64,000 nucleotides of DNA, taken from the NCBI GenBank assembly GCA_964634795.1, contig CAZWLL010000001.1:13830-77829 (forward strand). The letters are read 5' to 3'. A program made the position numbers and the translations under genes. The notes under the pieces were generated by a model, which was given only the letters and a program-made list of their open reading frames with translations, made no database searches and had not been told where the DNA came from. This stretch comes from an uncultured Ruminococcus sp. GTDB lineage: Bacteria > Bacillota > Clostridia > Oscillospirales > CAG-272. The first letter of the stretch is position 1, and each line of letters opens with the position of its first letter. Below, piece by piece: positions 40,295 through 55,719 of this stretch.

Positions 40295-41830
40295 TCAAAG
40301 CAAAGGTGCCAACAGCTCCATAACTCCTCTGAAAAGCTGACGGATAAAACTGCATTCTTCGTCTTTTGCGACACTGCTTACCGAGAAAATTTCGAGAAAA
40401 TCATTTTTTATATCTTGTATGCATTTTGTTTTATACATCCATACACCGCATTCGAAATGCAGGTACAGGCTTCTGTAGTCGAGATTAATGCTTCCTACCG
40501 TTGCGTACTTGTCATCGCATAAAAACGTCTTTGCGTGAATAAATCCCGGCTGATATTCGTAAATCTTAACTCCGTTTTGAATTAAGTTCGGATAGTAAGA
40601 CTTAGTCGTTTCTTTAACCAATTTTTTGTCCGGTATACCGGGAGTCACTATTCTTACATCCACACCGCTCTTAACCGCAGTAAGCAAAGCCTGCTCCATC
40701 TGTTCATCGATTATCAGATAAGGTGTTGTTATCCAGATATAGTCATGCGCGGATGAAATCATTCCGAGATAAACGTTTTCCCCTACCGGCTCGAAATCCA
40801 GAGGATCATCCGAATACGGCTGTACATATCCGACACTATTTTCCGATTTTGACGTAAGCTCAGGTTTAAAGGAATCGTATTTTCCCGACTCATGAACCGG
40901 TATATGGCACAAATAGTCCCACATTGAAAGAAACATTACGGTAAAGCTCCATGCCGCACTGCCGTCGATTACAATGGCGTTATCCTTCCAATATCCGTAT
41001 TTAACGATTTTATTAATGTATTCATCCGCTATGTTAATACCGCCCGTAAAAGCGGTCTTTCCGTCTATTATCAGTATTTTTCTGTGGTCTCGGTTATTTT
41101 GATGTGCTGACAGGACGGGAACAAAACGATGGAATACTCTGCACTTTATTCCTTCATTTTCAAGCTGACGTGCAAAATCTCTTTTCAGTGTCATAATGCA
41201 TCCGATGTCATCATATATAATTCTGACGTCTATTCCCTCTGAAACCTTGCGTTTCAGAACATCGTGTATTCTGTTCCACATTTCTCCTTCGCTTATAATA
41301 AAATATTCGATAAATATATATTTTTCTGCTTTCTCAAGCTCTGCAAGCATTACTTCGAACGCATCCTCGCCTGTTTTAAAATAATCGAGTCTGCCGCATC
41401 TGTAAGGAGGATAGCTTGACGCATTGCGTATATATTTAGCCTGTTTTTCGGAATTCGCGTCGTCATCTGCCAACTCCGATATAACATCATCACCGCGTCC
41501 CAATTCTCCGCCGGCGACATCTGCCATAAAACGCATTTTCTTCAGCGAGCGTTTCGATAATCTGTTTCCGCTGAGTATCACATACAGAGCAATTCCGAAC
41601 GCGGGGAACGTAAAGACAACCACAATCCAGGCAAGCTTGTATGCCATGTTTTGATTTGTGTTAATTATCTTCAGCACGAACACAAAACCCATAACAAACA
41701 TAACAGCATAGTAGAATACAAAATATCTTGTAAACTCCACAGTCATAACAAGTATCATTAAAAGCTGTGCGAGTATAAGAATGCCAACTACGAATACCCT
41801 GCTGAAAATAAGCTTCTTAAGTCTTTGCAT
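40295..41830 (-). CDS. cls: Cardiolipin synthase (PLD superfamily, two HKD motifs)
   Basis: 511 aa with two N-terminal TM helices. The HKD motifs are HRKILIIDGKTAFTGGINI and HAKTFLCDDKYATVGSINLD. Confidence 0.94.
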   Translation of the reverse strand: MQRLKKLIFSRVFVVGILILAQLLMILVMTVEFTRYFVFYYAVMFVMGFVFVLKIINTNQNMAYKLAWIVVVFTFPAFGIALYVILSGNRLSKRSLKKMRFMADVAGGELGRGDDVISELADDDANSEKQAKYIRNASSYPPYRCGRLDYFKTGEDAFEVMLAELEKAEKYIFIEYFIISEGEMWNRIHDVLKRKVSEGIDVRIIYDDIGCIMTLKRDFARQLENEGIKCRVFHRFVPVLSAHQNNRDHRKILIIDGKTAFTGGINIADEYINKIVKYGYWKDNAIVIDGSAAWSFTVMFLSMWDYLCHIPVHESGKYDSFKPELTSKSENSVGYVQPYSDDPLDFEPVGENVYLGMISSAHDYIWITTPYLIIDEQMEQALLTAVKSGVDVRIVTPGIPDKKLVKETTKSYYPNLIQNGVKIYEYQPGFIHAKTFLCDDKYATVGSINLDYRSLYLHFECGVWMYKTKCIQDIKNDFLEIFSVSSVAKDEECSFIRQLFRGVMELLAPLL

Positions 41831-41868
41831 AGATTCCCCTCTTCTTCAGTGACATTAAAACGTATATT

Positions 41869-41897
41869 ATTTTACTATATTCAACTTATAAAATCAA
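41869..41897 (-). promoter_or_regulatory. Candidate promoter TTGATT-17-TAAAAT for cls
   Basis: The RC of 41892-41897 is TTGATT and the RC of 41869-41874 is TAAAAT, with a 17-nt spacer. Confidence 0.45.
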
Positions 41898-42044
41898 TTA
41901 GAATACGGTTAAAAAAAACGATAATACATCTCAGCTTTTCGTTCTAATCTCTCTTAATGAGAGCTGAATCGTCTTTTCCACCATTTCTTCAATCTCATGT
42001 CATTATTAAGGCATGATTTTGTCGATTTTTTTATTTTCTGTTTC

Positions 42045-42073
42045 TTGATTATTCCTCAAAATTATATTATAAT
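42045..42073 (+). promoter_or_regulatory. Promoter TTGATT-17-TATAAT for the UPF0371 gene
   Basis: TTGATT is at 42045-42050 and TATAAT at 42068-42073. An AGGAG SD precedes the ATG at 42112. Confidence 0.6.
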
Positions 42074-42111
42074 ATCTTGGATTTTGTTTTTTTATTTTAC
42101 AGGAGTTATAT

Positions 42112-43596
42112 ATGTTTAATGTTGGTTTTGATAATGACAAGTATTTTAATTTACAGACGGAAAAAATATTAGAGCGTATCTCTCATTTCGGCGGAAAGCT
42201 TTACCTTGAATTCGGCGGAAAATTGTTTGACGATTACCATGCTTCTCGTGTTCTGCCCGGATTTAAGCCCGATACAAAAATAAACATGCTGCTTCGTCTT
42301 AAAGACAAGGCTGAAATCGTTGTTGTTGTGTCGGCTGTCGCTATAGAGCAAAATAAAATGCGCGCTGACCTCGGAATCACATATGATATGGATGCTTTAA
42401 GACTTATCGACGCTTTCCGTGAAAGAGGCTTATATGTCGGAAGCGTTTGCATCACACACTATGCTTCACAGCCGTCTGCAGATGCATTTATCAAGAGACT
42501 TACCGATTTAGGCATAAAAGTGTTCAAGCACTACCCTATTCCCGGTTATCCCACCAATGTCAAGCTCATTGTCAGCGATGACGGATACGGTAAAAACGAA
42601 TATATCGAAACCTCACGTCAGCTGATTGTTATAACCGCTCCCGGTCCCGGCAGCGGAAAAATGGCTACCGCGCTTTCACAGCTGTACCATGACGCTAAGA
42701 AAGGCATAAAGTCAGGATATGCTAAATTCGAAACCTTCCCTGTATGGAACCTGCCTCTTACTCATCCTGTCAACCTCGCCTACGAATCCGCTACAGCGGA
42801 CCTTGCAGACGTTAACATGATTGACCCCTTCCATCTCGAGGCATATGGCAAAACCACAGTGAACTATAACCGCGACGTAGAAATATTCCCGGTATTGCGC
42901 AGACTTTTCGAAGAAATATACGGTGAATGCCCATATAAGAGTCCGACCGATATGGGTGTCAACATGGTAGGATTCTGCATATTCGATGACGATGCCGTAT
43001 CTAATGCCGCAAATATGGAAGTGATTCGCAGATATTATGATTCACTTGTTAAAAGAATGAAAGGCTTATGCTCTCCCGATGAAGTAATGAAGCATGAGCT
43101 TATCATGAATCAGGCAAAAATTACGACCGACGACAGACATGTTGTAAAATCCGCACTGGAAAAATCAGCTGCTACCGAAGGCCCTGCCGCCGCAATAGAA
43201 CTCCATGACGGAAGAATTGTAACCGGTAAAACCTCGGCTCTTCTCGGATCCTGCTCTGCCGTTCTTCTTAACGCTCTTAAAGCTCTCGCGGGTGTAGATG
43301 ATGATGTACAGTTAATTTCTCCCGCAGTAATCGAACCCATATGCCGCCTGAAAACCAGCAATTTCGGCTGTCATAACCCCAGACTTCACGCAGATGAAAT
43401 TCTGATTGCTTTAGCTATTTCGGCTACAACTGATTCCAACGCAAAGGCTGCACTCGATGCTCTGCCTGAGTTATTCTCATGTGAGGCTCACTCAAGTGTT
43501 ATCGTATCGCAGGTTGATACCGATACCTTCCGCAAGCTCGGAATCAATCTCACCTGCGAGCCTGTTTACGAATCAAACAAGCTGTTCCACAGATAA
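42112..43596 (+). CDS. UPF0371/DUF1846-family protein, function unknown
   Basis: 494 aa. The N-terminus FDNDKYFNLQTEKILERISHFGGKLYLEFGGKLFDDYHASRVLPGF is characteristic of the family from memory. The length is typical (about 495 aa). Confidence 0.85.
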   Translation: MFNVGFDNDKYFNLQTEKILERISHFGGKLYLEFGGKLFDDYHASRVLPGFKPDTKINMLLRLKDKAEIVVVVSAVAIEQNKMRADLGITYDMDALRLIDAFRERGLYVGSVCITHYASQPSADAFIKRLTDLGIKVFKHYPIPGYPTNVKLIVSDDGYGKNEYIETSRQLIVITAPGPGSGKMATALSQLYHDAKKGIKSGYAKFETFPVWNLPLTHPVNLAYESATADLADVNMIDPFHLEAYGKTTVNYNRDVEIFPVLRRLFEEIYGECPYKSPTDMGVNMVGFCIFDDDAVSNAANMEVIRRYYDSLVKRMKGLCSPDEVMKHELIMNQAKITTDDRHVVKSALEKSAATEGPAAAIELHDGRIVTGKTSALLGSCSAVLLNALKALAGVDDDVQLISPAVIEPICRLKTSNFGCHNPRLHADEILIALAISATTDSNAKAALDALPELFSCEAHSSVIVSQVDTDTFRKLGINLTCEPVYESNKLFHR

Positions 43597-43644
43597 GGCG
43601 AAAATTTTATTTCAACATATATAACTTAAAATATATCAAACATA

Positions 43645-43684
43645 AAAGTCTCCGTTCACGAGTTAATCGTTAAACGGAGACTTT
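43645..43684. terminator. Bidirectional terminator between the UPF0371 gene and the SIS gene
   Basis: AAAGTCTCCGTT (43645-43656) pairs with AACGGAGACTTT (43673-43684), with an inner ACGA/TCGT pairing. Confidence 0.8.
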
Positions 43685-43718
43685 CTTATTATGTGTTAAA
43701 TACTATACAGTACGTAAA

Positions 43719-44759
43719 TTACTTTGTAATGGTAATTTTATTGATAACTCCCGCTTTATCGGGGTCTATGCCGCGTACAATTGTCATGCAGCAAGCCAAG
43801 AGCTGGAAGAACATAACAGCCATATGCGGGAATGTGAATTCACTGCCTGTGCAAGGAAGAACAACAGGTGTTGTAGCTGCGGGGCAGATTGAAGGATCAT
43901 CAGTAATAACAACTACATCCGCACCTACGTTCTGCAGCTTCTGTATAATCGTAAGTGAGTCATCATCGGTTTTGCCCTTAGGTGCGATAACGAATACAAG
44001 ATCATTCGGCTTAACCTGAGCAATCGGACCATGGTGGAAGTCTGATGTAGGATATCCCTTCATCTTCAACTTGTTGGTCTCAAGCATTTTAAGTGCGCCT
44101 TCAAGTGCTATCGGGTATGAAATACCGCGTCCGAGAACTATCGCGCCGCTTATATTCTGATACTTTTTAGCGAACAATTCAATCTCTTCGAATTTAGTAT
44201 CAAGCAGAACACCTGCTTTTTCGCCGACACCATGCATTTCGGCAAGAAGCTCATCGTTTCCTGCCCATACAGCAGCCATAACTCCGAGTATCATCATCTG
44301 TGCGGTAAATGTCTTTGTAGCGGCGATACTTGCTTCAAATCCGCATCCGCAGAACAAATGATATTCAGCTGATTTTGCCATAGGTGATTCTTCGTTATTT
44401 GTAACAGCAACGGTTATTGCTCCATCTTTCTTCGCGGATTCGAGTACTGCGAGAACGTCCTCAGCTTTTCCCGACTGTGAAACACCGATAACAAGGTTAT
44501 CACTGAGATCTACATGTGCTCCGTACTTAGTGAATACCGAAGGAGTACCGAGTGTGCAGGGAATTCCCGCAAAGATGCCGAACAGATACTGAGCATATAC
44601 ACATGCATGGTCTGATGTTCCGCGTGCCGCAAAATAAATGTGCTTTATTCCCTTGCCCTTGGCTTTAGCAACTATCTCTTTAATTTTGTCAATGTTTAAG
44701 TCATAAGCTTTTTTTATGGTTTCAGGCTGTTCTCTGATTTCTGTCTCAAGGTTAATCAT
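43719..44759 (-). CDS. Double-SIS-domain sugar-phosphate isomerase/deaminase (GlmS C-terminal-like; AgaS/FrlB/NagB-II group)
   Basis: 346 aa from the ATG at 44759 (GGAG SD 9 nt upstream). It has two SIS domains (FAARGTSDHA...GVSQSGKAEDV and VLGRGISYPIALEGALKMLE). Confidence 0.85.
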   Translation of the reverse strand: MINLETEIREQPETIKKAYDLNIDKIKEIVAKAKGKGIKHIYFAARGTSDHACVYAQYLFGIFAGIPCTLGTPSVFTKYGAHVDLSDNLVIGVSQSGKAEDVLAVLESAKKDGAITVAVTNNEESPMAKSAEYHLFCGCGFEASIAATKTFTAQMMILGVMAAVWAGNDELLAEMHGVGEKAGVLLDTKFEEIELFAKKYQNISGAIVLGRGISYPIALEGALKMLETNKLKMKGYPTSDFHHGPIAQVKPNDLVFVIAPKGKTDDDSLTIIQKLQNVGADVVVITDDPSICPAATTPVVLPCTGSEFTFPHMAVMFFQLLACCMTIVRGIDPDKAGVINKITITK

Positions 44760-44786
44760 ATAATTAATCTCCATTCTATAAATTTT

Positions 44787-45746
44787 TTATATTAATGAAA
44801 GGGTTTTTAAAATAAATATTCCGATAAATACCGTTAATATACAGATAAAAGTGGATAACAAGAGGATTTGCGCCGCCAGCTCATGGTCATTTCCCATTTT
44901 CTTAGCCATAATGTAGCTTGATACTGCGGTAGGCGCACCGAAACAAATCAGTATAACACCGAGCGACGGTCCTCTGAAGCCGATAAGCGCGGCTAAAGTA
45001 ATCACCGCTGCGGGAAGTACTACTGTTTTAAAAATTGCACCGATAACAGCATATTTGAGTCTGCCATGCAGACTTTCGAGTTTAAAGTTTGCACCCAAGC
45101 TTAAGAGTGCAAGCGGCGTTGCGAGATTCGCTAAATAAGAAAGAGTTTTTGACATAAACTGCGGTGTTTCAAAATCGGTAACCATTACTATTATACCGAG
45201 AAGTACTCCTATAATCAACGGATTTGTTATGACGTTCTTCAGTATACCGATAACCTTTTTACCGCTCATTTTCTCGTCTTTGCTTTCGGAAAACAGTGAT
45301 AATATAATTACCGAGTATGAATTAAACATAACAATAACAAACGGCATTGTAATAGCTATGGTCTGACCGCCGATTTCACCGAACATATTTACCGCAAGAG
45401 GTACTCCGAGAATCGCGAAATTCGATCGACAGATACCCTGAATAAGTGCTCCGCGTTTTGATCTATCCCGTACAGTCAGGCAAACAATCACGGTTACTAT
45501 AAAGAACGAAAATGTAACCGATAAGATAAGGAATAAAACAAGCGACCAGTCGATATTTTCATCAGGCTTACTGCCTGCCACTTCGTTGAAAAGCATAACA
45601 GGCAATGCTATTTTAAATACTATCCAATCTGCGGTTTCGGTAAATTTATCCGTAATAATACGGCATTTACCGAGTATTGCGCCGATTATTACCAAAAGAA
45701 AAATCGGAAATATAGCATTTACACTATACAGTAAATTATCAAGCAT
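44787..45746 (-). CDS. AEC (auxin efflux carrier/malate permease-like) family transporter
   Basis: 319 aa from the ATG at 45746 (GAAGG SD). It has about 10 TM segments with an N-terminus typical of the AEC family. The start lies 2 nt after the amidase stop. Confidence 0.85.
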   Translation of the reverse strand: MLDNLLYSVNAIFPIFLLVIIGAILGKCRIITDKFTETADWIVFKIALPVMLFNEVAGSKPDENIDWSLVLFLILSVTFSFFIVTVIVCLTVRDRSKRGALIQGICRSNFAILGVPLAVNMFGEIGGQTIAITMPFVIVMFNSYSVIILSLFSESKDEKMSGKKVIGILKNVITNPLIIGVLLGIIVMVTDFETPQFMSKTLSYLANLATPLALLSLGANFKLESLHGRLKYAVIGAIFKTVVLPAAVITLAALIGFRGPSLGVILICFGAPTAVSSYIMAKKMGNDHELAAQILLLSTFICILTVFIGIFILKTLSLI

Positions 45747-46581
45747 AATTTTCGCCTTCACTTAATCCTGTGTAGTAACTGTAAAGTCCGTCGGCAATTG
45801 CCTGTGCAATCTCAGACTGCCATTCATCATCAACCATATTAGCCGCATCAGTCGGGTTTGTACAAAAACCGATTTCAATAAGCGATGCCGCGACCATCGT
45901 TTCTCGTGTAACCTGATATGAAGCGACTGATTGATCGAATATCTGAGGCGAAGGAGTCGGATCCATTTCGTTTTCTATTGAATCCGCAATACTCTGCGCA
46001 ATAATCTCATCATTAGTGTCTACTTTGCGCCAGTTATTCTCATTTTCATAATAAATCCTGATTCCGCATGTGTCGAGATTTGCCTCATAAGAATTGACGT
46101 GAATCGATACATAATAGTCAATATCCAATGTATTAGCATAAGCAACTCTTTCGGAAGGATTAAAAATCTGATCGCCGTTGTCTTCGGCTGTTTTTCCGAA
46201 TGTGGTACCGTCATGTGTCATTACTACAGAGAAGCCGAGATTTGTTAAATCTTCCTTCAGCTTGTTTGCAACAGCCAAATTTATATCTTTTTCAAGCGTT
46301 CCGTCTTCCCATATGCCGTCACCGCATCCTCCGTCAACAAAGCCATGTCCCGGGTCAACGCATATGACATAGCCTTCTTTAACCTTTTCCCTATCATCGG
46401 ATGTTTTATCTTTTTTCTTCTTTCTTCTGATACCTGTACCCGGGAGAGCTGTTTCTGTCGATACGAAGTTTTCCTCATTGTTTTCCGCTGCTTGCTCACT
46501 TGAGCATCCGGTAAACAATAACAGAGCACATAAAAGTCCTGCTCCTATCCGTACGGCATGACAGTTTAACATTAGATTCAT
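45739..46581 (-). CDS. N-acetylmuramoyl-L-alanine amidase (Amidase_3), lipoprotein
   Basis: 280 aa with the lipobox LLFTGC. The zinc-site context is intact (CVDPGHGFVDGG and YVSIHVNSY). Confidence 0.88.
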   Translation of the reverse strand: MNLMLNCHAVRIGAGLLCALLLFTGCSSEQAAENNEENFVSTETALPGTGIRRKKKKDKTSDDREKVKEGYVICVDPGHGFVDGGCGDGIWEDGTLEKDINLAVANKLKEDLTNLGFSVVMTHDGTTFGKTAEDNGDQIFNPSERVAYANTLDIDYYVSIHVNSYEANLDTCGIRIYYENENNWRKVDTNDEIIAQSIADSIENEMDPTPSPQIFDQSVASYQVTRETMVAASLIEIGFCTNPTDAANMVDDEWQSEIAQAIADGLYSYYTGLSEGENYA

Positions 46582-46597
46582 TTTTATTAAGTCCTTA

Positions 46598-47725
46598 TTA
46601 TCTTAGGTAATCAGGGAGAAAATCCTCATCGATAATATTTTCAACTTTATCCTTCAGTTTATCAACGCTGACGTTATTCACCGCGTGATTTGCGGCAATT
46701 TCATCACTATATTCATTGAACGTAAATACTTGGAATCCCGATAGACCTGTTGTGTCATCATTTGTATAATGAATCACTGTCGGATTCAATGTAACATCAT
46801 CAAGCTCTATCGTTCCGCCTCCGTATGCAACAGAAAGATTCAGAATTCCCCCGCATAAATTGTCAATATTATCGGAGCTCGTTATAATATTTCCGAGTGA
46901 ATATGCAGCAAGAGTAAGTGTACCGTCTCCGGTGTCAACCCACTCGATTTTACCGAGAGCACTGCCGTTTCCGATAATTATATCAGCTCCCGATTGTGCA
47001 ATATTGTATATCACATTGCTTTTGTCCGCTGTCGAGTCATCACTTCCCCAATCCACAAAAACAATAACAATATCAGATACGAAATCCGAATATTCGATTT
47101 CCGATTGATATTTATCATCTTTATAATCAACTCCGGAAACCGAAAGACATGCAATGTTTAAACCGTTTTTGTTTATAACAATATTCTCGCTGCCTTCTTT
47201 TACCTCGGTAATATCGTACTTATCGGCTGTGTCAAAAGCAGATGAATTTCCGATATTTAATACGTCAATACCGAGATCGTATACCGCACCTACCGCTTCA
47301 TCGGGAAGCTGTGTTTTATCTTGCTCTGTATATGAACCGAATGCGATATCGGATGAACTGACTAAATTGTAAATACCCGTAAACATTCTGAGAAAGCTGT
47401 AGCTCTTGCCGTCACCGGCACGATTGGAAGCATCGCTTATAATGCTGTCATCAATCGTAATGTTTCCGCATATTGAAATATTGAGTACATCCTTTGCGTT
47501 AACCTCGGTTACCTCCTCCACCGATTCCTCAGTGGAGGTTTCGAGAGTATTTTTGCGCGAGGCCTGTGCCAACGTTTGTGATGAAGTATCAACCTCATCT
47601 GTGGTGTCAATGTCAGATGCGGTACTCGAATCTCTCATTTCTATTTGAATACATGATGAGAGGGCTAAAGAAACAGATAAACATGTTATTGCAAAACCGA
47701 TTTTCAGACAATTGTGTAAACGCAT
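46598..47725 (-). CDS. CapA/PGA_cap-like lipoprotein with substituted metal-ligand motifs (probable pseudoenzyme)
   Basis: 375 aa with the lipobox LALSSC and an S/T/E-rich linker. It is collinear with the CapA motifs, but GD becomes GN, NxE becomes SYT, NNH becomes NSS, HWG becomes DWG and GHHPH becomes GNGSA. Confidence 0.6.
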   Translation of the reverse strand: MRLHNCLKIGFAITCLSVSLALSSCIQIEMRDSSTASDIDTTDEVDTSSQTLAQASRKNTLETSTEESVEEVTEVNAKDVLNISICGNITIDDSIISDASNRAGDGKSYSFLRMFTGIYNLVSSSDIAFGSYTEQDKTQLPDEAVGAVYDLGIDVLNIGNSSAFDTADKYDITEVKEGSENIVINKNGLNIACLSVSGVDYKDDKYQSEIEYSDFVSDIVIVFVDWGSDDSTADKSNVIYNIAQSGADIIIGNGSALGKIEWVDTGDGTLTLAAYSLGNIITSSDNIDNLCGGILNLSVAYGGGTIELDDVTLNPTVIHYTNDDTTGLSGFQVFTFNEYSDEIAANHAVNNVSVDKLKDKVENIIDEDFLPDYLR

Positions 47726-47728
47726 AAA

Positions 47729-48982
47729 TTATCGCTTAGACAATACGTCTGATTCATATTTTTTCATCTCGGCAATCCAAGTATTGCCGTCGGGAACATT
47801 CTGCATGTCGCAGTAAGCATCCCAAACAAGACCAAACGGCAAAGTCTTATATTCTTCAAGATATGCTAATCTCGATGTGTAATCTCCGTCAGCCTCGAAT
47901 TTCTGGAGCATTTTTACAGGTTCGAGAGCGGCCCAAAGAAGAGCCTTCTGCATGTTTCTGGCACCGATAGCCCAGCATGCGATTCTGTTAATCGATCCGT
48001 CGAAGAAATCAAGTCCGATGTGTACTCTGTTTTCATAACCGCCGCGCTTAATTTCGGATGCGATTGTTTTTAATTCGTCATCGAATATTACAACGTGGTC
48101 TGAATCCCAGCGAACAGGACGAGATACGTGAAGCATAATTCCGTCGAGATACTGAAGTACACCGGAAATTTTATCGGAAACTACTTCTGTCGGATGGAAA
48201 TGTCCTGTGTCAAGTGTCAAGAGAGTATGATGCTTCATAGCGCATCCCATATAAAATTCATGTGAACCGATGGTGCAGCTCTCAAGACCTATGCCGAACA
48301 CCTTGCTCTCGACAGAATCGAGAGTATACTCGGGACTGAGCTTTTCAGCAAATATTTCCGCATATGACTCGGCAAGAGTTTCTCTTTTCTTAGCACGGTT
48401 TACGGGAATATCCTTAAATCCGTCGGGAATCCACAAATTGTTAACCGATACCTGACCGAGCTCGCGGCCGAAGTACTCTGATATTTTACGTGACGCAATA
48501 CCGTGTTCAATCCAGAATTTTCTTATAGCGGGATCGTCATTCGAAAGAGTAAATCCATCGGCTGAAAGAGGATGTGAGAAAAATGTGGGGTTAAAATCGA
48601 GTCCCAAATTATTCTGCTTAGCCCATTCTACCCATGATTTAAAATGTTCGGGAGCTATTTCGTTTCTCGGAACCTTTTTTCCGTCGGAATCCAAATATAT
48701 TGCATGAAGAGAGAATTTCTTTTTACCGGGAATCAAGCTCGATGCAAATTCGAAATCCTTTCTGAGTTCATCTATATTGCGTGATTTTCCGGGATAATTA
48801 CCTGTGGACTGAATGCCGCCTGTTAAATCACCGTCATTTGTTTCGAAACCGCCTACGTCATCTCCCTGCCAGCAATGAATTGACACCGGAGTGTTCTTGA
48901 CACTCTCAATAGCAGCATCAACGTCAACACCCCAATTTGAATATATTTCTCTTGCGGTCTCTAAAGCCTTTTCTGTATTCAT
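47729..48982 (-). CDS. rhaA: L-rhamnose isomerase
   Basis: 417 aa, collinear with E. coli RhaA ([42 protein letters not shown]). Confidence 0.95.
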
Positions 48983-49024
48983 ATTTATAACCTTTCTGTA
49001 AATCGTTCTTTATTTTTCAAACGG

Positions 49025-50506
49025 TTATCCGATGAGAGCGAGGAATCTTTCGTATGCCTCGTCCCATGCTGCTTTTTTCTCTGTATTCGGTTCGAATGTT
49101 TTAATTTCGAATGAATTTGCGATTATTCTTCTTGCTTCCCACATATCGGATATTTCACCGAGAGATATAAGCTGCATTACGGCATTTCCGAGAGTTGTTG
49201 CCTCAACCGGACCTGCGTACACGGATTTTCCGGTAGCGTCGGCGGCGAATTGAGACAGCATGTCTTCCTTTGTGCCTCCGCCGACAATATTAATTACCTC
49301 ATATTTCTTTCCGGTCAGCTCCTCGAGCTTTTCTGCAGTCCAACGATATCTCAGAGCGAGTGATTCGAAAATACATCTTACAATCTCTCCCGGGTTTTCG
49401 GGAACAGGCTGGTTTGTGTTTCTGCAGTATTCTCTGATTCGCTCGGGAAGATTTCCTGCGGGTGAGAACAGATTGTCATCGGGATTGATAAGTGAACGGA
49501 GAGGCTGTGCTTCTTTCGCGAGCATTGTGAGTTCATCGAAGGTATAACTCTTTCCCTCTCTCTTCCATTGACGGCGAGATTCCTGCTCAAGCCATAATCC
49601 CATTATATTTTTCAGAAGTCTGATTGTTCCGAAAACTCCGCCTTCGTTTGTGAAATCATATTTTTCCGAAAGCTCCGTAAGTACGGGAGTATCTGTCTCG
49701 GTTCCCATAAGAGACCATGTTCCGCTGGAAATGTACAGAAAATCCTTCTTTGCCGCGGGAACGGAGAGAACAGCACTCGCGGTATCATGCGAGCCGATTT
49801 TCATTACGGTAAGGCCTGTATGTCCTGTTTCTTCTTCTATTGATGGAATAAGCTTTCCGCACTTTGTTCCCGGCTGGACGATAGTATTGAAAATACCTGT
49901 CGGAATACCGCATTTCTTAATTAAATCGAAGTCATAATCTCTCTTTACCGCATCAAGCAAAGCACCGGTCGATGCGATTGTATATTCACTTGTTTTCTCG
50001 CCTGTGAGCATATAAGCAAACAAATCGGGCATATGGAGAAGGCACTCGGCGTTCTCTACAATCCACGGTCTGTCACGCATATCGGCTGTCAGCTGATACA
50101 AAGTGTTGAAATTCAGTGACTGGATACCTGTCTTACCGTAAATTTCTTTTCTCGATGCGAAATTCGAGAAAACATACGGCTGAATATCATCGGTACGCTT
50201 GTCTCTGTAATGATACGGGTTAGAAAGCAATGTACCGGCTTTGTCGAGATATCCGTAGTCAACACCCCAGGTATCAATACCCATTGATACGGTTTCACCT
50301 TCATGTGAGGCTGCCAGAACAGCGGTTTTTATTTCATGGAAAAGTCTCGGTGCGTCCCAGAAAAATCCGCCGGGCATCATAACAGGATCATTTGAAAAAC
50401 GGTGAATTTCTTTCAGGCTTATTTTCTCACCGTCAAAGGAACAGAGAATTCCCCTTCCGCTTGACGCTCCGAAATCCACTGCCAATATCTGCTTATTTTT
50501 CATCAT
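49025..50506 (-). CDS. rhaB: Rhamnulokinase (FGGY family)
   Basis: 493 aa. Recognised from ILAVDFGASSGR, IDTWGVDY, SSGTWSLMG and NIMGLWL. The second ATG (50503) has better SD spacing. Confidence 0.93.
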   Translation of the reverse strand: MMKNKQILAVDFGASSGRGILCSFDGEKISLKEIHRFSNDPVMMPGGFFWDAPRLFHEIKTAVLAASHEGETVSMGIDTWGVDYGYLDKAGTLLSNPYHYRDKRTDDIQPYVFSNFASRKEIYGKTGIQSLNFNTLYQLTADMRDRPWIVENAECLLHMPDLFAYMLTGEKTSEYTIASTGALLDAVKRDYDFDLIKKCGIPTGIFNTIVQPGTKCGKLIPSIEEETGHTGLTVMKIGSHDTASAVLSVPAAKKDFLYISSGTWSLMGTETDTPVLTELSEKYDFTNEGGVFGTIRLLKNIMGLWLEQESRRQWKREGKSYTFDELTMLAKEAQPLRSLINPDDNLFSPAGNLPERIREYCRNTNQPVPENPGEIVRCIFESLALRYRWTAEKLEELTGKKYEVINIVGGGTKEDMLSQFAADATGKSVYAGPVEATTLGNAVMQLISLGEISDMWEARRIIANSFEIKTFEPNTEKKAAWDEAYERFLALIG

Positions 50507-50524
50507 AACTCTCCTTTATATGTT

Positions 50525-51391
50525 TCAGCCTATTTCCGCAGTCCTCGGGATACAGTAACGAAGATTCTCAACTGCGGCTTTGAAAGCTGCTTCCGATGTT
50601 GGATATGCGTTTGCCAACTTGCTTGTATTGCCTGCCTCCTCAAGTGCCTCAAGACCTGAGAACACACGAAGATGCGGCTCTATTGTAAGTATGAAGTCTC
50701 CCTTATGAACTCTGTTGATAACTGCAAGAAGCTCGGGAATAGAACCGATGCCCATACCTGCGGGAACAACGGTACCGTTCTTAAGTGCATCTTTAATGTG
50801 GAGATATGTAATATGAGTTTTAAGTAAATTGTATGAATGTTCAAACGGTTCACAGCCGCACTGAATAAAGTTTGCGGGATCGAATACACATCCGAGTCTT
50901 CCGTCAAACTCATCGAGTATTTCAAGGCATCTCTCGGGAGTGTCTCCGTATATTCCCTTTTCATTCTCATGACAGAGCTTTACACCGTATTCATCGGCTA
51001 CATCAAGCATTTTGCCTAATCTGTCAATAACTTCGTTTTTATATTCATCGTACTTTCCGTCGGGAATATAGAATGAGAACATTCTGATTCTTGACGCATA
51101 AAGAATATCTGCGATTTCACATGTATTCTTAAGCTTGTCAAGATGAGGCTCAAAAGGATCGGTAATCTTTATCTTACCGATAGGAGAACCTATAGCCGAT
51201 ACGGAAATTCCGGACGATTCAAGCTTCTTGTGAACATCGGAAGCTTGGAACTGGGTAAGATCGGAAACATTTATTCCGTCCACACCTCTGAGTTCGGTCA
51301 TTCTGATCTTGCTTGTGATTAATCCTTCAATCTGTTCGTCTAAAGAAGGTGAATATTCATCCGAAAAAGCGCTTAATTTAAATTTTACCAT
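50525..51391 (-). CDS. Xylose-isomerase-like TIM-barrel (AP endonuclease 2 family) sugar-phosphate isomerase/epimerase; substrate unknown
   Basis: 288 aa. The metal-site context is ...KLCHENEKG...DPANF...HIKD...IEPH. It is the first gene of the rhaB-rhaA array. A GGAG SD is present. Confidence 0.8.
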   Translation of the reverse strand: MVKFKLSAFSDEYSPSLDEQIEGLITSKIRMTELRGVDGINVSDLTQFQASDVHKKLESSGISVSAIGSPIGKIKITDPFEPHLDKLKNTCEIADILYASRIRMFSFYIPDGKYDEYKNEVIDRLGKMLDVADEYGVKLCHENEKGIYGDTPERCLEILDEFDGRLGCVFDPANFIQCGCEPFEHSYNLLKTHITYLHIKDALKNGTVVPAGMGIGSIPELLAVINRVHKGDFILTIEPHLRVFSGLEALEEAGNTSKLANAYPTSEAAFKAAVENLRYCIPRTAEIG

Positions 51392-51469
51392 AAATTTATA
51401 CTCCGATATATGTCTTTCTATAAATAATATGTGATATGTAAATATACTGTCACTTATAGTTTTGATTTA

Positions 51470-51498
51470 ATTATAACATCATTTCAGTGTTAATGCAA
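51470..51498 (-). promoter_or_regulatory. Promoter TTGCAT-17-TATAAT for the TIM-rhaB-rhaA array
   Basis: The RC of 51493-51498 is TTGCAT and the RC of 51470-51475 is TATAAT, with a 17-nt spacer. The leader is about 70 nt. Confidence 0.6.
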
Positions 51499-51595
51499 TG
51501 TTTTATAAATAAAAAATCAAGGCATACAGACAGTTATTGTCGAATTTTGCAATTTCTTTTTTTATATTTGCATAATATTAATGTTTTACTTACAA

Positions 51596-53956
51596 TTACA
51601 ATTCGAGAACAGTAACTCCGTAGTCACCCTCTCCGAAAGCTCCCGCACGGAATGATTTGATTCTTTTGTCTTCCTTAAATCTTTGCCACAATGCGTTTCT
51701 GAGCGCACCCGTTCCCTTTCCGTGTATTACCGTAGCGGAATGAACCCCCGCAAGTATAGCATTATCAATGTAACGGTCGACAACAAACCAAGCCTCTTCT
51801 CCCGTCATTCCGCGCACATCGCATTCAAGCTTGAACGATCTCGTTACCTGTGCACGGGCTACTGCCTGCTTTTTGTGCTCCTTCTTTGCTACCTGTTCGG
51901 CATCCTCAAGCAGCTTTAAATCCTTTACGTTTACTCGCATTTTAACGGCGCCCATTCTGATGTTTACTGCACCGTTTTTATCGGGATCATCGATAAGTAT
52001 ACCCTGTGTGCCCAAATTACGATGTACAACCGCATCTCCTTTTTTGAGCGGACGCGGAAGGACATATTCGTCATCATCGACATAATCGGTGGTCGGGTTC
52101 ATCTTATCGTCAAACTCGCGAACCTTCGCGCGTATTGATTTTTTAGCCTCGGCAAGCTTATCCGCATCCTGCTGCTTTTTTGCCTCTTCAAGCTGTTTCA
52201 TAACATAGTCGCTTGTAGCTCTCGCTCCGTCCAGAAGCTCTTGCGCTTTTTTTCGCATAGTCTGAGCATCCTTCTCTGCGCTTGCGAGACGCTGTTTAAG
52301 CTCCGCCTCGGTTGCTTTGTTTTTCTCTTCAAAAGCACGGCGTTCGTTTTCGGCGTCCTTCTTTTCTTTTTCGAGCTCTATTCGTGTTTTTTCCAGCTTT
52401 TCTATTACAGTTTCAAAGCTTCGTGAGCCTGTATCGACAAACTGCTCTGCTCTTTTAACTATCTCAGGTGATAAACCGAGCTTTTCGGAAATCGCAAACG
52501 CGTTTGATTTTCCGGGCGTACCGATTATAAGCCTGTATGTCGGGCAAAGAGTATTTATATCGAATTCACACGATGCGTTTACAACGCCCTCGGTTTCTAT
52601 GGCATATGCTTTAAGCTCCGCATAATGCGTTGTGGCTGCGCATAATGTTTTATTCATGCGAGTCTCTTCCAGTATTGCCATCGCAAGAGCCGCACCTTCC
52701 ACAGGGTCCGTTCCGGAACACAGCTCATCGAAAAGAACCATCGATTTATCTGTCATTTTATCGAGAATATTAACTATTCCCTTCATATGTGACGAGAATG
52801 TCGAAAGTGACTGTTCAATACTCTGCTCGTCACCTATATCGGAAAATACCTCATCGAATACTCCGATTTTCGAGGTATCATCTGCGGGAATATGAAGTCC
52901 TGCTTGTGCCATAAGCGTAAACAGTCCTATTGTTTTCAGCGTAACCGTTTTACCGCCTGTATTAGGACCGGTTATGACGAGCATTTTATAATCTTTTCCG
53001 AGTGAAACCGTAATCGGTACAACCTTATCCTTATCGAGCAGCGGATGACGAGCTCTATATAAATCCACAACAGGCTTATCGACAATACACGGTGCCGATG
53101 CGTTTAGTTTATATGAGAATTCGGCACAGGTGAATATAAATGCCAGCTCGGTTATATTCAAATAGTCAAGATTCAAATCATTACCCGACCCCGCAACCCC
53201 CGCCGACAAATCACGAATAATGCGCTCAATTTCATGTTCTTCCTTGCTTTCGAGTTCACGCAGCTCATTATTCGCCTCCACAACGGCAATAGGCTCGATA
53301 AACAGTGTCGCTCCGGATGAGGATGTATCATGTATGAGACCTTTGACCTCATTTCTGTATTCCGCTTTCACGGGAATGACAAAACGTCCGCCTCTTGTGG
53401 TAACTATATTTTCCTGAAGATATTTTGATTGTCCGGACACGTATTTTTGCAGCAAATCCTTTATTTTACTGTCGGTAAGACGCTTTTTTCTTCTGATTTC
53501 ACTCAGCTCATGGCTTGCTTCATCCGCAACAAAATCATCCGCAAGTATTGAGCGGTTGATTTTTTCCTCGAGGCTGCGGTTGGAGACCAGTCTGTCGAAT
53601 ATTTCTCCGAGAGAAGTCTGCGGTGTTTTTTCGCCCTGTACATAATCCTGCAGCAGCCTTGCTGTTTTGAAAACGGCGGCACAATCGAGAAGCTCACGCA
53701 ATGACAGCATGGCATCTTTCTCAGCTCTTTCCACACTTGCGCGAATATCCTTTATCCTGCCGAATGACGGTGTACCCTTTAATCCTATTAGAGTTTTGGC
53801 GTCAGTTGTGTGCTGCTGTCTCAGTCTGACCTTCTCCGCATTTGAGGAAGGAGTAAGACTTCTTGCCATCTCAGCTGATCCTTCGGTCGGAGCAAGCTCT
53901 GCGAGCAGTTCTGTGATTTTATCAAATTCAAGTACATGTAATGCTTTAGAATTCAT
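51596..53956 (-). CDS. mutS2: Endonuclease MutS2 (MutS domain V ATPase + C-terminal Smr)
   Basis: 786 aa with Walker A GPNTGGKTV, a long coiled-coil K/E region, and an Smr domain at the C-terminus (VIHGKGTGALR). Confidence 0.95.
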   Translation of the reverse strand: MNSKALHVLEFDKITELLAELAPTEGSAEMARSLTPSSNAEKVRLRQQHTTDAKTLIGLKGTPSFGRIKDIRASVERAEKDAMLSLRELLDCAAVFKTARLLQDYVQGEKTPQTSLGEIFDRLVSNRSLEEKINRSILADDFVADEASHELSEIRRKKRLTDSKIKDLLQKYVSGQSKYLQENIVTTRGGRFVIPVKAEYRNEVKGLIHDTSSSGATLFIEPIAVVEANNELRELESKEEHEIERIIRDLSAGVAGSGNDLNLDYLNITELAFIFTCAEFSYKLNASAPCIVDKPVVDLYRARHPLLDKDKVVPITVSLGKDYKMLVITGPNTGGKTVTLKTIGLFTLMAQAGLHIPADDTSKIGVFDEVFSDIGDEQSIEQSLSTFSSHMKGIVNILDKMTDKSMVLFDELCSGTDPVEGAALAMAILEETRMNKTLCAATTHYAELKAYAIETEGVVNASCEFDINTLCPTYRLIIGTPGKSNAFAISEKLGLSPEIVKRAEQFVDTGSRSFETVIEKLEKTRIELEKEKKDAENERRAFEEKNKATEAELKQRLASAEKDAQTMRKKAQELLDGARATSDYVMKQLEEAKKQQDADKLAEAKKSIRAKVREFDDKMNPTTDYVDDDEYVLPRPLKKGDAVVHRNLGTQGILIDDPDKNGAVNIRMGAVKMRVNVKDLKLLEDAEQVAKKEHKKQAVARAQVTRSFKLECDVRGMTGEEAWFVVDRYIDNAILAGVHSATVIHGKGTGALRNALWQRFKEDKRIKSFRAGAFGEGDYGVTVLEL

Positions 53957-54027
53957 TTTGTCCTCTAAAATAATTGTCAGATAAATTAAGGATGCGCCGA
54001 ATAAATCAGCCTTAAATCAGTGCTTCC

Positions 54028-54825
54028 TTAAATCTGCGTACGTATCTTTTTGTAGTATTCCAACGATGAAAAGTTATGTTCGAGATGATTAAGCAAATAT
54101 CTTTCACATACAACCGAGAATAGTGATATCTCCGTCTTGTCAAGTGTAAAAGATAGGAATTTTTTAATTGGCGATGACGCTATATACCTTATCGCATAAA
54201 GCACCGGCAATGACAGACGTATCATAATCTTCGCAGTAGAATCATCGCAAATATATTCCGGAGAATTATTAAGCTCTGCTCGGCATTTTTTACAGATTAT
54301 ACGTCCGTTCATTACGTCAAGCGTTGAATCCTCCGTAATATCGCATCCGCATATTCCGCACGCCGATAAATCCGGCATAAAACCTTCAGCCGCAGCTGTT
54401 CTGAACTCAAACGCGCCTTTTATTATATCAAGCGGAATATTGATATTCGATATTGCGTAAAGCGTGTTTAATACAAGCGGAAGCAGCTCCTCATCTCCCA
54501 TACCTACAAGTGAAACATCATGAGCTACATCGCAGACATAATTCGCAAGCGATAATTTCTCGATATCATATCGTATATTCATAAACGATTCTATCAAAAA
54601 TGCGTCCGCTATGTAATAATACTCTCCGCGCTTTTTTAATTGAAACGTACTGTATGTGAAAAGCTGTGCCGATGCGGCGTATTTGTTTTTGATACTCGTC
54701 AAGCCTTTGCCTGATATCGTTATCAGTCCCTCTTCCGCCGTCAGCAGCGTCAGCAGTCTGTCCCTTTCTCCGACTTTAACGTCGCGTATCACAAGTCCGT
54801 CAAGTTCGATAAAGTTTTCACTCAT
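54028..54825 (-). CDS. recO: DNA repair protein RecO
   Basis: 265 aa with an N-terminal OB fold (GLVIRDVKVGERDRLLTLLT) and a Cys4 zinc motif (CGICGC...CKKC). Confidence 0.9.
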   Translation of the reverse strand: MSENFIELDGLVIRDVKVGERDRLLTLLTAEEGLITISGKGLTSIKNKYAASAQLFTYSTFQLKKRGEYYYIADAFLIESFMNIRYDIEKLSLANYVCDVAHDVSLVGMGDEELLPLVLNTLYAISNINIPLDIIKGAFEFRTAAAEGFMPDLSACGICGCDITEDSTLDVMNGRIICKKCRAELNNSPEYICDDSTAKIMIRLSLPVLYAIRYIASSPIKKFLSFTLDKTEISLFSVVCERYLLNHLEHNFSSLEYYKKIRTQI

Positions 54826-54828
54826 CGT

Positions 54829-55719
54829 TTACATGTTCTGCTCCGGTTTAAATCCGAAGCTGTTCAGCGAAAGCTGGTCATCACGCCATTTTTCTTTTAC
54901 TTTTACCCAAAGGTTTAAGTAAACCTTCATGCCGAAAAACGCTTCCATGTCCTCACGGGCATAAGTTCCGATTTTCTTAAGCGTTTCGCCGTTCTTTCCG
55001 ACGATTATTCCCTTATGAGACTGTTTTTCACAGTATATTTCCGCGCGGATACGAAGCATTTTTTCATCTTCTTCAAACTGCTCGATAACAACCGCGGTGC
55101 CGTGCGGTATTTCATCAGACAGTGTACGAAGAAGCTTTTCGCGAATTATTTCCGCGGCGATTTGTCTCTCCGGCTGGTCCGTAAGGCTGTCCGCATCAAA
55201 CATCCACTCGCCTTCATACAAAAACTTTTCAGCCTCATCAAGTACGTCGCTTACATTTTTTCCGGTTTCGGCACATGTCGGGACAACCGCGTCGAAATCG
55301 TGCAGCGATGCATAGTCGGATATTGTTTCGGCGAGCTTTTCGCGATTAACAAGGTCGATTTTGTTCAGCACCAGCATCGACGGAAGCTCTGCCTTTTTTA
55401 TCTGATTTATAAGGTTTTTCTCGATTTCTCCTGCGGGATAACCTGCTTCGGCTATTAAAATAACCGCATCTGCCGAACCTACGGATGAACGTACGGATTT
55501 CATCATAAATTCACCGAGTTTATTTTTTGCGTGGTGTACACCGGGAGTGTCAAGGAATACATATTGATCCTCGCCTTTTGTGAGTATGCCCGCGATACGA
55601 TTTCTTGTGGTCTGCGGTTTCGGAGAAACTATCGCAACCTTTTCTCCGAGTAAGTGGTTCATAAGTGTGCTTTTGCCTACATTCGGTCTGCCTACTATAG
55701 CTATAAATGCTGTTCTCAT
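54829..55719 (-). CDS. era: GTPase Era
   Basis: 296 aa. G1 is GRPNVGKST, G3 is DTPG, G4 is NKID, and there is a C-terminal KH domain. Confidence 0.96.
   Translation of the reverse strand: MRTAFIAIVGRPNVGKSTLMNHLLGEKVAIVSPKPQTTRNRIAGILTKGEDQYVFLDTPGVHHAKNKLGEFMMKSVRSSVGSADAVILIAEAGYPAGEIEKNLINQIKKAELPSMLVLNKIDLVNREKLAETISDYASLHDFDAVVPTCAETGKNVSDVLDEAEKFLYEGEWMFDADSLTDQPERQIAAEIIREKLLRTLSDEIPHGTAVVIEQFEEDEKMLRIRAEIYCEKQSHKGIIVGKNGETLKKIGTYAREDMEAFFGMKVYLNLWVKVKEKWRDDQLSLNSFGFKPEQNM

Follow-up and report, generated by a model that had tools for sequence, protein, structure and literature searches.

Seven minus-strand genes (43719-51391) in a stretch of 64,000 nucleotides (nt) from an uncultured Ruminococcus sp. 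(assembly GCA_964634795.1, contig CAZWLL010000001.1; the whole stretch is called the window below) form a real, vertically inherited operon directly after era-recO-mutS2. In the order of transcription they encode a TIM-barrel enzyme (TIM), a rhamnulokinase-like FGGY kinase (RhaB), L-rhamnose isomerase (RhaA), a CapA-like lipoprotein, a lipoprotein N-acetylmuramoyl-L-alanine amidase (Ami in gene orders), an auxin efflux carrier (AEC) permease and an enzyme with two SIS domains (SIS). We favour, with a probability of roughly 0.55, a reading in which one conserved promoter serves three loosely coupled modules rather than one linear pathway. An earlier note on this DNA had described a single operon with an incomplete rhamnose pathway and had suggested, as one inference, a combined module for wall turnover; the operon architecture is supported, whereas the incompleteness, the wall turnover and the single module are not.

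In the favoured reading, the transcript would run from one constitutive-looking sigma-70 promoter to one terminator. The first module would be an ancestral core, TIM-RhaB-RhaA, in which RhaA turns L-rhamnose into L-rhamnulose and RhaB phosphorylates the product. A RhaEW-like protein, a fused aldolase and short-chain dehydrogenase/reductase (SDR) encoded on contig C11 of the same genome, would act in trans, cleaving the phosphorylated sugar to dihydroxyacetone phosphate and lactaldehyde and then carrying out a lactaldehyde redox step. Exogenous rhamnosides, opened by GH78-like enzymes, would supply the rhamnose, and TIM would be an active metal-dependent isomerase/epimerase-type enzyme for sugars or sugar phosphates that accompanies rhaBA. 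The second module would pair SIS, a putative NagB-II-type deaminase-isomerase of glucosamine-6-phosphate (GlcN-6-P) and fructose-6-phosphate (Fru-6-P), with AEC, which would move its substrate or product; SIS may serve amino-sugar catabolism together with NagA or, in reverse and with ammonia, wall-precursor supply. The third module would consist of the two lipoproteins, inserted between rhaA and the AEC gene in one clade.

Architecture of the operon

The genome that contains the window comprises 2.17 Mb in 95 contigs and is 92% complete. Pfam and NCBIfam profile searches bear out the seven gene calls and their common strand. The TIM gene (50525-51391, 288 amino acids (aa), xylose-isomerase-like; AP_endonuc_2 PF01261, 74.6 bits) leads, followed by rhaB (49025-50506), rhaA (47729-48982), the CapA-like gene (46598-47725), the amidase gene (45739-46581; Amidase_3, PF01520, 130.9 bits), the AEC gene (44787-45746; Mem_trans, PF03547, 111.7 bits) and the SIS gene (43719-44759). 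The raw intergenic gaps are 18, 42, 3, 16, -23 and 12 nt. The raw AEC reading frame opens with GTG 45761; the sole alternative in-frame start within its first 20 codons, the probable ATG at 45746, makes the AEC and amidase genes overlap by 8 nt. The SIS reading frame, which reaches 44774 in raw form, was trimmed to ATG 44759, preceded 9 nt upstream by GGAG, leaving 27 nt between AEC and SIS. The spacings first proposed for this operon (18, 42, 3, 16 and a trimmed 27 nt) stand, except that the 2 nt assigned to the amidase-AEC junction becomes -8.

The 204 nt between mutS2 and the first gene hold the arrangement TTGCAT-17-TGnTATAAT, a sigma-70-type promoter at 51470-51498 (minus strand) with a -35 element TTGCAT (51498-51493), a 17-nt spacer, TG (51478-51477) and TATAAT (51475-51470). 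A general promoter scan missed this site, whose -35 element matches three of six consensus bases. Nevertheless, in all 11 aligned orthologous upstream regions TTGCA, TG and TATAAT are invariant or nearly so while the flanks are unconserved, only the promoter and the start codon being kept, a phylogenetic footprint that speaks for the promoter. No second, operator-like conserved block stands out in the 11-region alignment, Rfam searches of 43000-52000 at E <= 0.1 returned no riboswitch or leader RNA element, and profile searches of 40295-55719 returned no regulator gene. The earlier statement that the window has no AraC/DeoR-type rhamnose regulator needs one correction: a DeoR-family regulator lies at 3076-3861 (plus strand), about 47 kb from the operon.

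At the other end, an intrinsic-terminator-like hairpin with a U-rich tract (43644-43685, minus strand) is common to the operon and the convergent DUF1846 gene. The fold of 43597-43725 (129 nt) has -30.7 kcal/mol with z = -4.05, and none of 200 shuffles was as stable. Terminator-like sites inside the operon are weak and number 8 against 8.1 expected in shuffles; the hairpin noticed earlier at 43645-43684 is real and the internal sites are at chance level. Compared with L006, the nearest species, the ratios of nonsynonymous to synonymous substitution rates (dN/dS) of all seven genes, 0.015-0.134, indicate purifying selection, with dS about 1 and near saturation. Three features argue for a single operon: a conserved promoter, a terminator, and gene spacing that stays tight in relatives.

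Mosaic gene order in relatives

A search with TIM of species-representative genomes gave 28 loci. The gene directly after TIM is rhaB in 21 and the CapA-like gene in one (L011); two loci end at a contig edge, three have another context and one is a distant match. The complete seven-gene order recurs in six other species (L006, L007, L010, L017, L018 and L019, L007 being counted although its contig ends inside SIS) and is not peculiar to this genome, the case that the earlier note had named as refuting its view. Partial forms include an operon without rhaA (L008, in the same-genus genome G049), one without rhaB and rhaA in which the CapA-like gene follows TIM after 15 nt (L011), two without SIS (L023, L024) and four in which a second TIM barrel precedes TIM-rhaB-rhaA-AEC (L026, L027, L028, L030). 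Tandem copies are found as well: two amidases in L017, three in L019 and three CapA-like genes in G017 (L069).

The family sample consists of 121 genomes, this one (G000) and G001-G120. Sixteen further regions from it show TIM-rhaB-rhaA, TIM-rhaB-rhaA-AEC-SIS, TIM-rhaB-rhaA-SIS, TIM-rhaB-rhaA-AEC, TIM-rhaB-rhaA-CapA-Ami, rhaB-rhaA-Ami-SIS, TIM-CapA-Ami-AEC and rhaB-rhaA-CapA-SIS; additional arrangements are rhaB-rhaA-CapAx3-SIS (G017) and rhaB-rhaA-CapA-SIS-aldolase-prs (G086). Some relatives have TIM-CapA-Ami-AEC-SIS but no rhaBA, others TIM-rhaB-rhaA-AEC(-SIS) but no lipoproteins. In an order-level sample of 151 genomes, TIM is found no more than 4 kb from rhaA in six, which belong to four families.

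The block immediately follows mutS2 in 33 related loci, and its composition was mapped onto a MutS2 tree (34 rows, quick IQ-TREE, midpoint root used for drawing only). TIM-rhaB-rhaA is found on both halves of this tree, across which AEC and SIS are also scattered, while CapA plus Ami fall within one 20-row clade with 100% support in the Shimodaira-Hasegawa-like approximate likelihood ratio test. The only CapA-like gene outside that clade on the tree is in L049 (G056); the carriers G017 and G086 are absent from it. TIM-rhaB-rhaA is the near-constant core of the block. Our reading is that an ancestral TIM-rhaB-rhaA(-AEC-SIS) operon probably received the lipoproteins later and underwent many losses. 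One combined module, as originally envisaged, does not fit lipoproteins confined mainly to one clade and sub-blocks that occur separately. Within the library covered by our literature search, no description of this seven-gene combination was found.

Two orthologues carry interruptions, each a possible case of decay or assembly error: an internal stop codon in the amidase gene L018:14796-15650 and one internal TAA in the TIM gene G064:C238:5774-6619.

Rhamnose catabolism

RhaA exceeds both equivalog cut-offs for L-rhamnose isomerase (NF002203, 667.5 bits against 572; TIGR01748, 654.8 against 584.95) over residues 3-417. Its partner RhaB may well be a genuine rhamnulokinase, a role suggested by G049, in which the sole rhamnulokinase-like gene is the orthologue at the mutS2 locus, while rhaA and rhaD form a pair on another contig, next to an AraC-type regulator. 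This genome yielded no match to RhaD (TIGR02624), to the mutarotase RhaM (PF05336) or to the transporter RhaT (PF06379), and no separate complete rha operon elsewhere; RhaM is rare across the family (8 of 121 genomes). The absence of rhaD, rhaM and a RhaT-type transporter, read earlier from the window, thus extends to the assembly.

The conclusion that the pathway is incomplete is not supported. The only class II aldolase matches in this genome are AraD on C46 and, on C11, a 656-aa RhaEW-like protein (L004:8294-10264) with Aldolase_II at residues 11-190 and adh_short at 389-577. A fused class II aldolase/SDR, RhaEW, has been proposed as a substitute for RhaD (Rodionova et al., 2013, PMC3870299). 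Among the 121 genomes, rhaA is present in 81, a rhaD-type match of at least 230 bits in 23 (22 of them with rhaA) and a full-length RhaEW-like gene in 34 (31 with rhaA); rhaD and RhaEW-like genes meet in just three, all with rhaA. This tally leaves out RhaEW-like matches that are SDR-only, split or 42% identical, as well as a single rhaD fragment of 162 bits. The rhaD genes almost always adjoin a rhaA about 50% identical to that of the window. Where TIM lies within 3 kb of rhaA (16 genomes), 13 genomes have a RhaEW-like gene, two have rhaD and two, G045 and G078, have neither; G030 has both and is counted in each class. Across the family the RhaEW-like gene is thus found together with rhaA and mostly in place of rhaD, and the rhamnose pathway of this genome is probably complete, with an unlinked RhaEW-like enzyme acting in trans.

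The source of rhamnose may be external. Three GH78-like rhamnosidase matches in this genome suggest exogenous rhamnosides, and RmlC, the dTDP-rhamnose epimerase, was not found in the 92%-complete assembly, which argues against recycling of the organism's own rhamnose-containing wall polymer. The turnover of a rhamnose wall glycopolymer, once suggested for this operon, accordingly loses ground.

The predicted system resembles RhaEW-type L-rhamnose catabolism (PMC3870299) in combining RhaA, a RhaB-like kinase and a fused aldolase/SDR that here alternates with rhaD. It differs in that the RhaEW-like gene is unlinked and below the TIGR02632 cut-off, in that RhaM, RhaT and a rha regulator were not found, and in that the first gene of the operon encodes an uncharacterised TIM barrel; a term search of PMC3870299 gave no TIM barrel, auxin carrier or Ruminococcus. 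Unlike the canonical rha operon (rhaBAD, rhaM, rhaT, RhaS/RhaR), the block has no RhaD, RhaM, RhaT or adjacent AraC-type regulator in our searches. The apparently broken rhamnose pathway of uncultured gut and rumen Clostridia would thereby become a testable complete one, made up of RhaA, RhaB and a RhaEW-like enzyme in trans.

On C11 there is an overlap between the RhaEW-like gene and the end of a 429-aa gene (L004:7008-8297, with only a faint PHP-domain match); this 429-aa gene comes after a Methyltransf_32 gene, plsY and der, a context unrelated to sugar use. In two other loci the gene after SIS encodes a 431-433-aa protein that carries two Aldolase_II stretches (L064:2771-4072 and L071:4891-6186), and in G086 it sits in the rhaB-rhaA-CapA-SIS-aldolase-prs arrangement. 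Reading frames of 435-449 aa with weak similarity to rhaD in other genomes may belong to the same family. The two-Aldolase_II protein could represent a third type of aldolase in rhaA genomes that have neither rhaD nor RhaEW.

The TIM-barrel enzyme

TIM matches no NCBIfam family, and its sole sequence match in the PDB is MJ1311 (E 2.4e-6); searches by name and by likeness gave generic labels only. Residues E142, D171, H198 and E238, a Glu-Asp-His-Glu metal site, are invariant in 84 homologues, and dN/dS relative to L006 is 0.019. The AlphaFold2 (AF2) model has a mean predicted local distance difference test score (pLDDT) of 95.6 and a TIM-barrel fold. Among solved structures, those closest in fold are ketose 3-epimerases, AsbF, the 3-keto-glucal hydratase AtHYD, Art22 and IolI; since these are just 13-18% identical, with template modelling (TM) scores of about 0.7, no subfamily can be assigned.

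A whole-library search gave 2440 relatives of TIM at E <= 0.001. Among 15 longer relatives examined, seven are fused to Gfo/Idh/MocA oxidoreductases and one to a NagB-I-family domain (the fusion proteins are P0008, P0023, P0111, P0129, P0135, P0017, P0101 and P0084). A paralogue 44-48% identical to TIM adjoins a divergent Glucosamine_iso (NagB-I-like) gene in five family genomes (G078:C28, G044:C127, G117:C51, G020:C138 and G093:C54). Going by these fusions and neighbours, the TIM family appears to accompany sugar dehydrogenases and deaminase-like enzymes besides rhaBA. The present loci flag a conserved TIM-barrel enzyme as a steady partner of rhaBA.

Two more specific roles were considered. 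TIM as the missing aldolase was set aside: RhaEW-like enzymes cover 13 of the 16 TIM-rhaBA genomes, and the proteins closest to it in fold comprise epimerases, isomerases, dehydratases and hydratases but no aldolases; the idea persists for G045 and G078. For TIM as a stand-in for RhaM the phylogenetic profile is uninformative, RhaM being so seldom present in the family.

The SIS enzyme and the AEC carrier

The SIS protein (346-351 aa) finds its best NCBIfam matches in the C-terminal half of GlmS and in NagB-II, at about 200 bits each and below both cut-offs. Only positions 248-596 of the 607 in the GlmS profile TIGR01135 are matched, and there is no glutaminase domain. SIS aligns over its full length with Shewanella NagB-II (PDB 8EOL/3HBA; E 2e-36), and a phmmer alignment to 8EOL retains the equivalents of all four SdNagBII residues S52, S97, E227 and H243. 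According to PMC10201695, S52 and S97 are phosphate-binding serines and E227 and H243 are catalytic. SIS thus resembles the Shewanella enzyme in its two SIS domains, missing glutaminase domain, conserved catalytic residues and distribution complementary to that of NagB-I. It departs from it in scoring below the NF046059 cut-off, in being about equally far from the GlmS isomerase domain, in having Leu for the allosteric-site Lys219, in its pairing with AEC, and in being the sole Fru-6-P/GlcN-6-P enzyme found, for which a biosynthetic direction is conceivable. Its dN/dS value, 0.015, is the lower end of the range for the operon.

This genome has NagA. No NagB-I and no GlmS above cut-off were found in it, while 14 of 14 control genomes have GlmS; this 92%-complete genome hence yielded no Fru-6-P/GlcN-6-P enzyme besides SIS, the absence of GlmS being provisional. 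Across the family, GlmS is present in 63 genomes, the SIS type in 35 and NagB-I in 78; 118 of 121 carry one or more of these enzymes, and seven, this one included, have the SIS type alone. NagB-I is rarer among SIS genomes (14/35) than in those without SIS (64/86), which fits functional equivalence of the two. The notion that SIS replaces GlmS was dropped, as their co-occurrence is about that expected by chance (both in 17 genomes, SIS without GlmS in 18, GlmS without SIS in 46, neither in 40). The 58 family genomes without GlmS above cut-off, 55 of which carry NagB-I and/or the SIS type, raise the question of how GlcN-6-P is supplied.

AEC, matched by PF03547 over residues 14-312, is the only Mem_trans gene in this genome. 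Orthologues of at least 43% identity occur in 25 family genomes, 13 of which also have SIS; the two genes are adjacent in 12 of these 13, and seven of the 12 pairs lie on another contig than rhaA or in a genome without rhaA. AEC is therefore read as a partner of SIS rather than a rhamnose carrier. The earlier suggestion that it moves a pathway intermediate is kept in this modified form, with SIS and not the rha genes as its likely partner. The recurrence of the AEC-SIS pair would offer an initial hint at a substrate in a little-characterised transporter family.

In seven loci from other genera (L064, L065, L066, L067, L069, L070 and L071), a phosphoribosyl pyrophosphate (PRPP)-synthetase-like gene (369-421 aa) lies immediately behind SIS or one gene further on. 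This genome has a single homologue of that gene, 66-69% identical, at C8:46318-47457. The NagA gene of this genome adjoins an N-sulfoglucosamine-sulfohydrolase-like sulfatase gene on C29 (L057:7114-10798), in a region that also encodes another AP_endonuc_2 TIM barrel (305 aa, IolO- or psicose-epimerase-like); the NagA-sulfatase context hints at the use of sulfated host amino sugars.

The two lipoproteins

Lipoboxes are present in the CapA-like protein, in the amidase and in all orthologues examined, and the lipobox Cys25 of the CapA-like protein is invariant in 14 sequences. With dN/dS of 0.134 (CapA-like) and 0.107 (amidase), against 0.015-0.043 for the other five genes, both lipoproteins are fast-evolving yet constrained. 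A complex prediction with residues 75-375 of the CapA-like protein and 65-280 of the amidase gave a score of 0.01 against a mark of 0.32.

The PF09587 match of the CapA-like protein is C-terminal only (44 bits, profile positions 172-253). Its AF2 model (pLDDT 79) has a calcineurin-like fold, with calcineurin-like phosphoesterases and the lasso-peptide epimerase MslH as best matches (MslH: Foldseek E 7e-11 to 7e-10, TM 0.45-0.50). MslH is a Ca-dependent peptide epimerase homologous to CapA (PMC10406935, PMC8179263). In the window protein, the equivalents of MslH E44, N87, H88, H259 and H295 are substituted or deleted and D91 is kept (alignment A3, in the order E44/N87/H88/D91/H259/H295: gap, S, S, D, D, S); the Asp of the first motif has become Asn, its equivalence to MslH D11 being by motif only. 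Close orthologues share these substitutions or deletions, D91 again excepted, whereas the distant same-locus orthologues in G092, G051 and G056 keep the motifs. In the window lineage the protein has lost the catalytic residues of its family while staying under purifying selection, an example of a conserved pseudoenzyme encoded beside a wall amidase. A canonical PGA_cap lipoprotein (229 bits) is encoded by a paralogue on C22 (L056:5356-6687), in which MslH E44, N87, H88, D91, H259 and H295 are all matched. The window lipoprotein shares the CapA fold of these proteins and differs in its missing residues and its place beside a wall amidase rather than in a poly-gamma-glutamate or lasso-peptide cluster. 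The C22 paralogue itself adjoins rbfA, a DHH phosphoesterase gene and truB.

In the amidase, C26, H79, E97, H161 and E236 are invariant in 13 orthologues. We take the last four to be the zinc ligands and the catalytic Glu, and judged by these residues the enzyme appears catalytically intact. It falls below every NCBIfam equivalog cut-off (CwlD, 113.8 bits against 221.55). The PF01520 domain and the four invariant residues are shared with the Amidase_3 enzymes CwlD and AmiA/B/C; the lipoprotein nature, a long low-complexity linker, tandem duplicates in some relatives and the location inside a sugar-catabolic operon are not.

Weighing the readings

Several observations weigh against three loosely coupled modules or against the roles assigned within them. 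We infer co-transcription and the lack of internal promoters from DNA, not from transcripts. Tight spacing is kept across genera whose MutS2 proteins are just ~50-60% identical, which could mean a functional tie stronger than loose coupling. RhaB scores 492 bits against a TIGR02627 cut-off of 527.95, the next FGGY subfamily, fuculokinase, reaching just 117.8, and the RhaEW-like protein scores 299.8 bits against 567.75 for TIGR02632. Neither rhaD nor a full-length RhaEW-like gene is present in 31 of the 81 rhaA genomes, including G045 and G078; the family must hence have a further aldolase, which might be relevant in this genome too. The operon shared by TIM and SIS, together with the NagB-I-like fusions and neighbours, hints that TIM belongs to an amino-sugar module. 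SIS reaches 193.8 bits against the NagB-II cut-off of 430 (NF046059). GlmS may be encoded in the 8% of the genome that is not assembled; the same-genus G049 has GlmS, the flanks of its glmS not being syntenic with this genome. Finally, five loci (L026, L027, L028, L030 and L043) have TIM-rhaB-rhaA-AEC without SIS, which keeps the idea of a rhamnose carrier alive.

One further reading, in our view unlikely, is that TIM, AEC and the NagB-II-like enzyme make up an undescribed sugar/amino-sugar route of gut Oscillospirales-type Clostridia, tied mechanistically to rhamnose use, with the amidase and the dead CapA/MslH-fold lipoprotein recruited in one clade to harvest wall material. TIM could then act, for example, on L-rhamnulose(-1-phosphate) or on an amino-ketose phosphate, and AEC-SIS could supply GlcN-6-P to wall synthesis in the many family members that have no GlmS.

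A single integrated pathway of wall-glycopolymer salvage is possible, at low odds, and not favoured. The amidase and the CapA-like protein would free material from peptidoglycan-linked glycopolymers, such as linkage units of rhamnose and N-acetylglucosamine (GlcNAc) and muropeptides, AEC would import the product, RhaA and RhaB would consume the rhamnose and SIS the amino sugar, TIM would correct a stereocentre, and the salvage would feed GlmS-less wall synthesis. Rhamnose and GlcNAc do co-occur in wall-polymer linkage units of Gram-positive bacteria. All seven genes stand behind one conserved promoter with gaps of at most 42 nt, in an order kept in six other species; NagA is present, the apparently intact amidase is exported as a lipoprotein, and, with GlmS and NagB-I not found, amino-sugar supply would depend on SIS or on salvage. 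The distribution of the genes argues otherwise: the lipoproteins are mainly those of one clade, TIM-rhaB-rhaA(-AEC-SIS) occurs without them in many genera, L011 and G051 keep TIM-CapA-Ami-AEC without rhaBA, and the AEC-SIS pair is away from rhaA in seven genomes. Moreover, the missing RmlC gives no indication of an own rhamnose polymer, the CapA-like protein is without its family's catalytic residues, and Pfam and NCBIfam searches of the block found no glycosidase, kinase or etherase for N-acetylmuramic acid, or peptide transporter.

Mere adjacency, in which the site after mutS2 tolerates insertions and internal promoters drive the lipoproteins and AEC-SIS separately, is improbable. Every gene save the rhaB-rhaA pair is mosaic in presence and absence, and the copy number of tandem genes changes (two or three amidases in L017/L019, three CapA-like genes in G017). 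Promoter-like hexamers do occur inside the amidase and AEC genes, e.g., at 46076-46048 and 45218-45190, but such sites in the region are at shuffle level (27 against 22.3 +/- 4.5), and junctions of 3, 16, -8 and 27 nt leave no room for intergenic promoters. No convincing internal terminator is present, spacing stays tight in gene-loss variants, as between TIM and the CapA-like gene of L011, and AEC and SIS remain adjacent away from this locus.

Very improbable is a route like that of E. coli frlABCD, in which the FGGY kinase would phosphorylate a ketosamine or rare ketose other than L-rhamnose, TIM would epimerise it and SIS would release the amine: RhaA lies well above both L-rhamnose isomerase cut-offs, the G049 locus provides the sole rhamnulokinase-like gene for a rhaA-rhaD pair elsewhere, the occurrence of rhaA follows that of rhaD or RhaEW-like aldolases, TIM matches no NCBIfam family, and SIS scores 41.9 bits for the FrlB deglycase (NF008481, cut-off 430) compared with about 200 for GlmS/NagB-II. 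The case for it comes from the same four parts standing together (carrier, kinase, AP_endonuc_2 TIM barrel and double SIS), from their recurrence without lipoproteins as TIM-rhaB-rhaA-SIS and TIM-rhaB-rhaA-AEC-SIS, from the RhaB score below its equivalog cut-off, and from TIM relatives fused or adjacent to deaminase-like NagB-I-family genes. The frlABCD epimerase is presumably a TIM barrel, FrlC presumably belongs to the Pfam family of TIM, and FrlD is presumably a PfkB-type kinase. Both operons have a permease, a sugar kinase, an epimerase and a double-SIS enzyme (frlABCD: bioRxiv 10.1101/2020.01.13.904318); the present one differs in its FGGY/rhamnulokinase-like kinase, its GlmS/NagB-II-like SIS, a bona fide RhaA and the lack of an FrlR-type regulator.

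Neighbouring genes

Upstream, era, recO and mutS2 are on the same strand as the operon; downstream lie the convergent DUF1846 gene and a cardiolipin synthase gene. The remaining genes of the window are housekeeping genes, among them those for DNA polymerase III alpha, MurB, a class A penicillin-binding protein, SecA and tRNA ligases. Next to the distant DeoR-family gene, the window encodes a DUF5107 protein and three parts of a 2-oxoacid dehydrogenase complex: E2, E3 and a fused E1.

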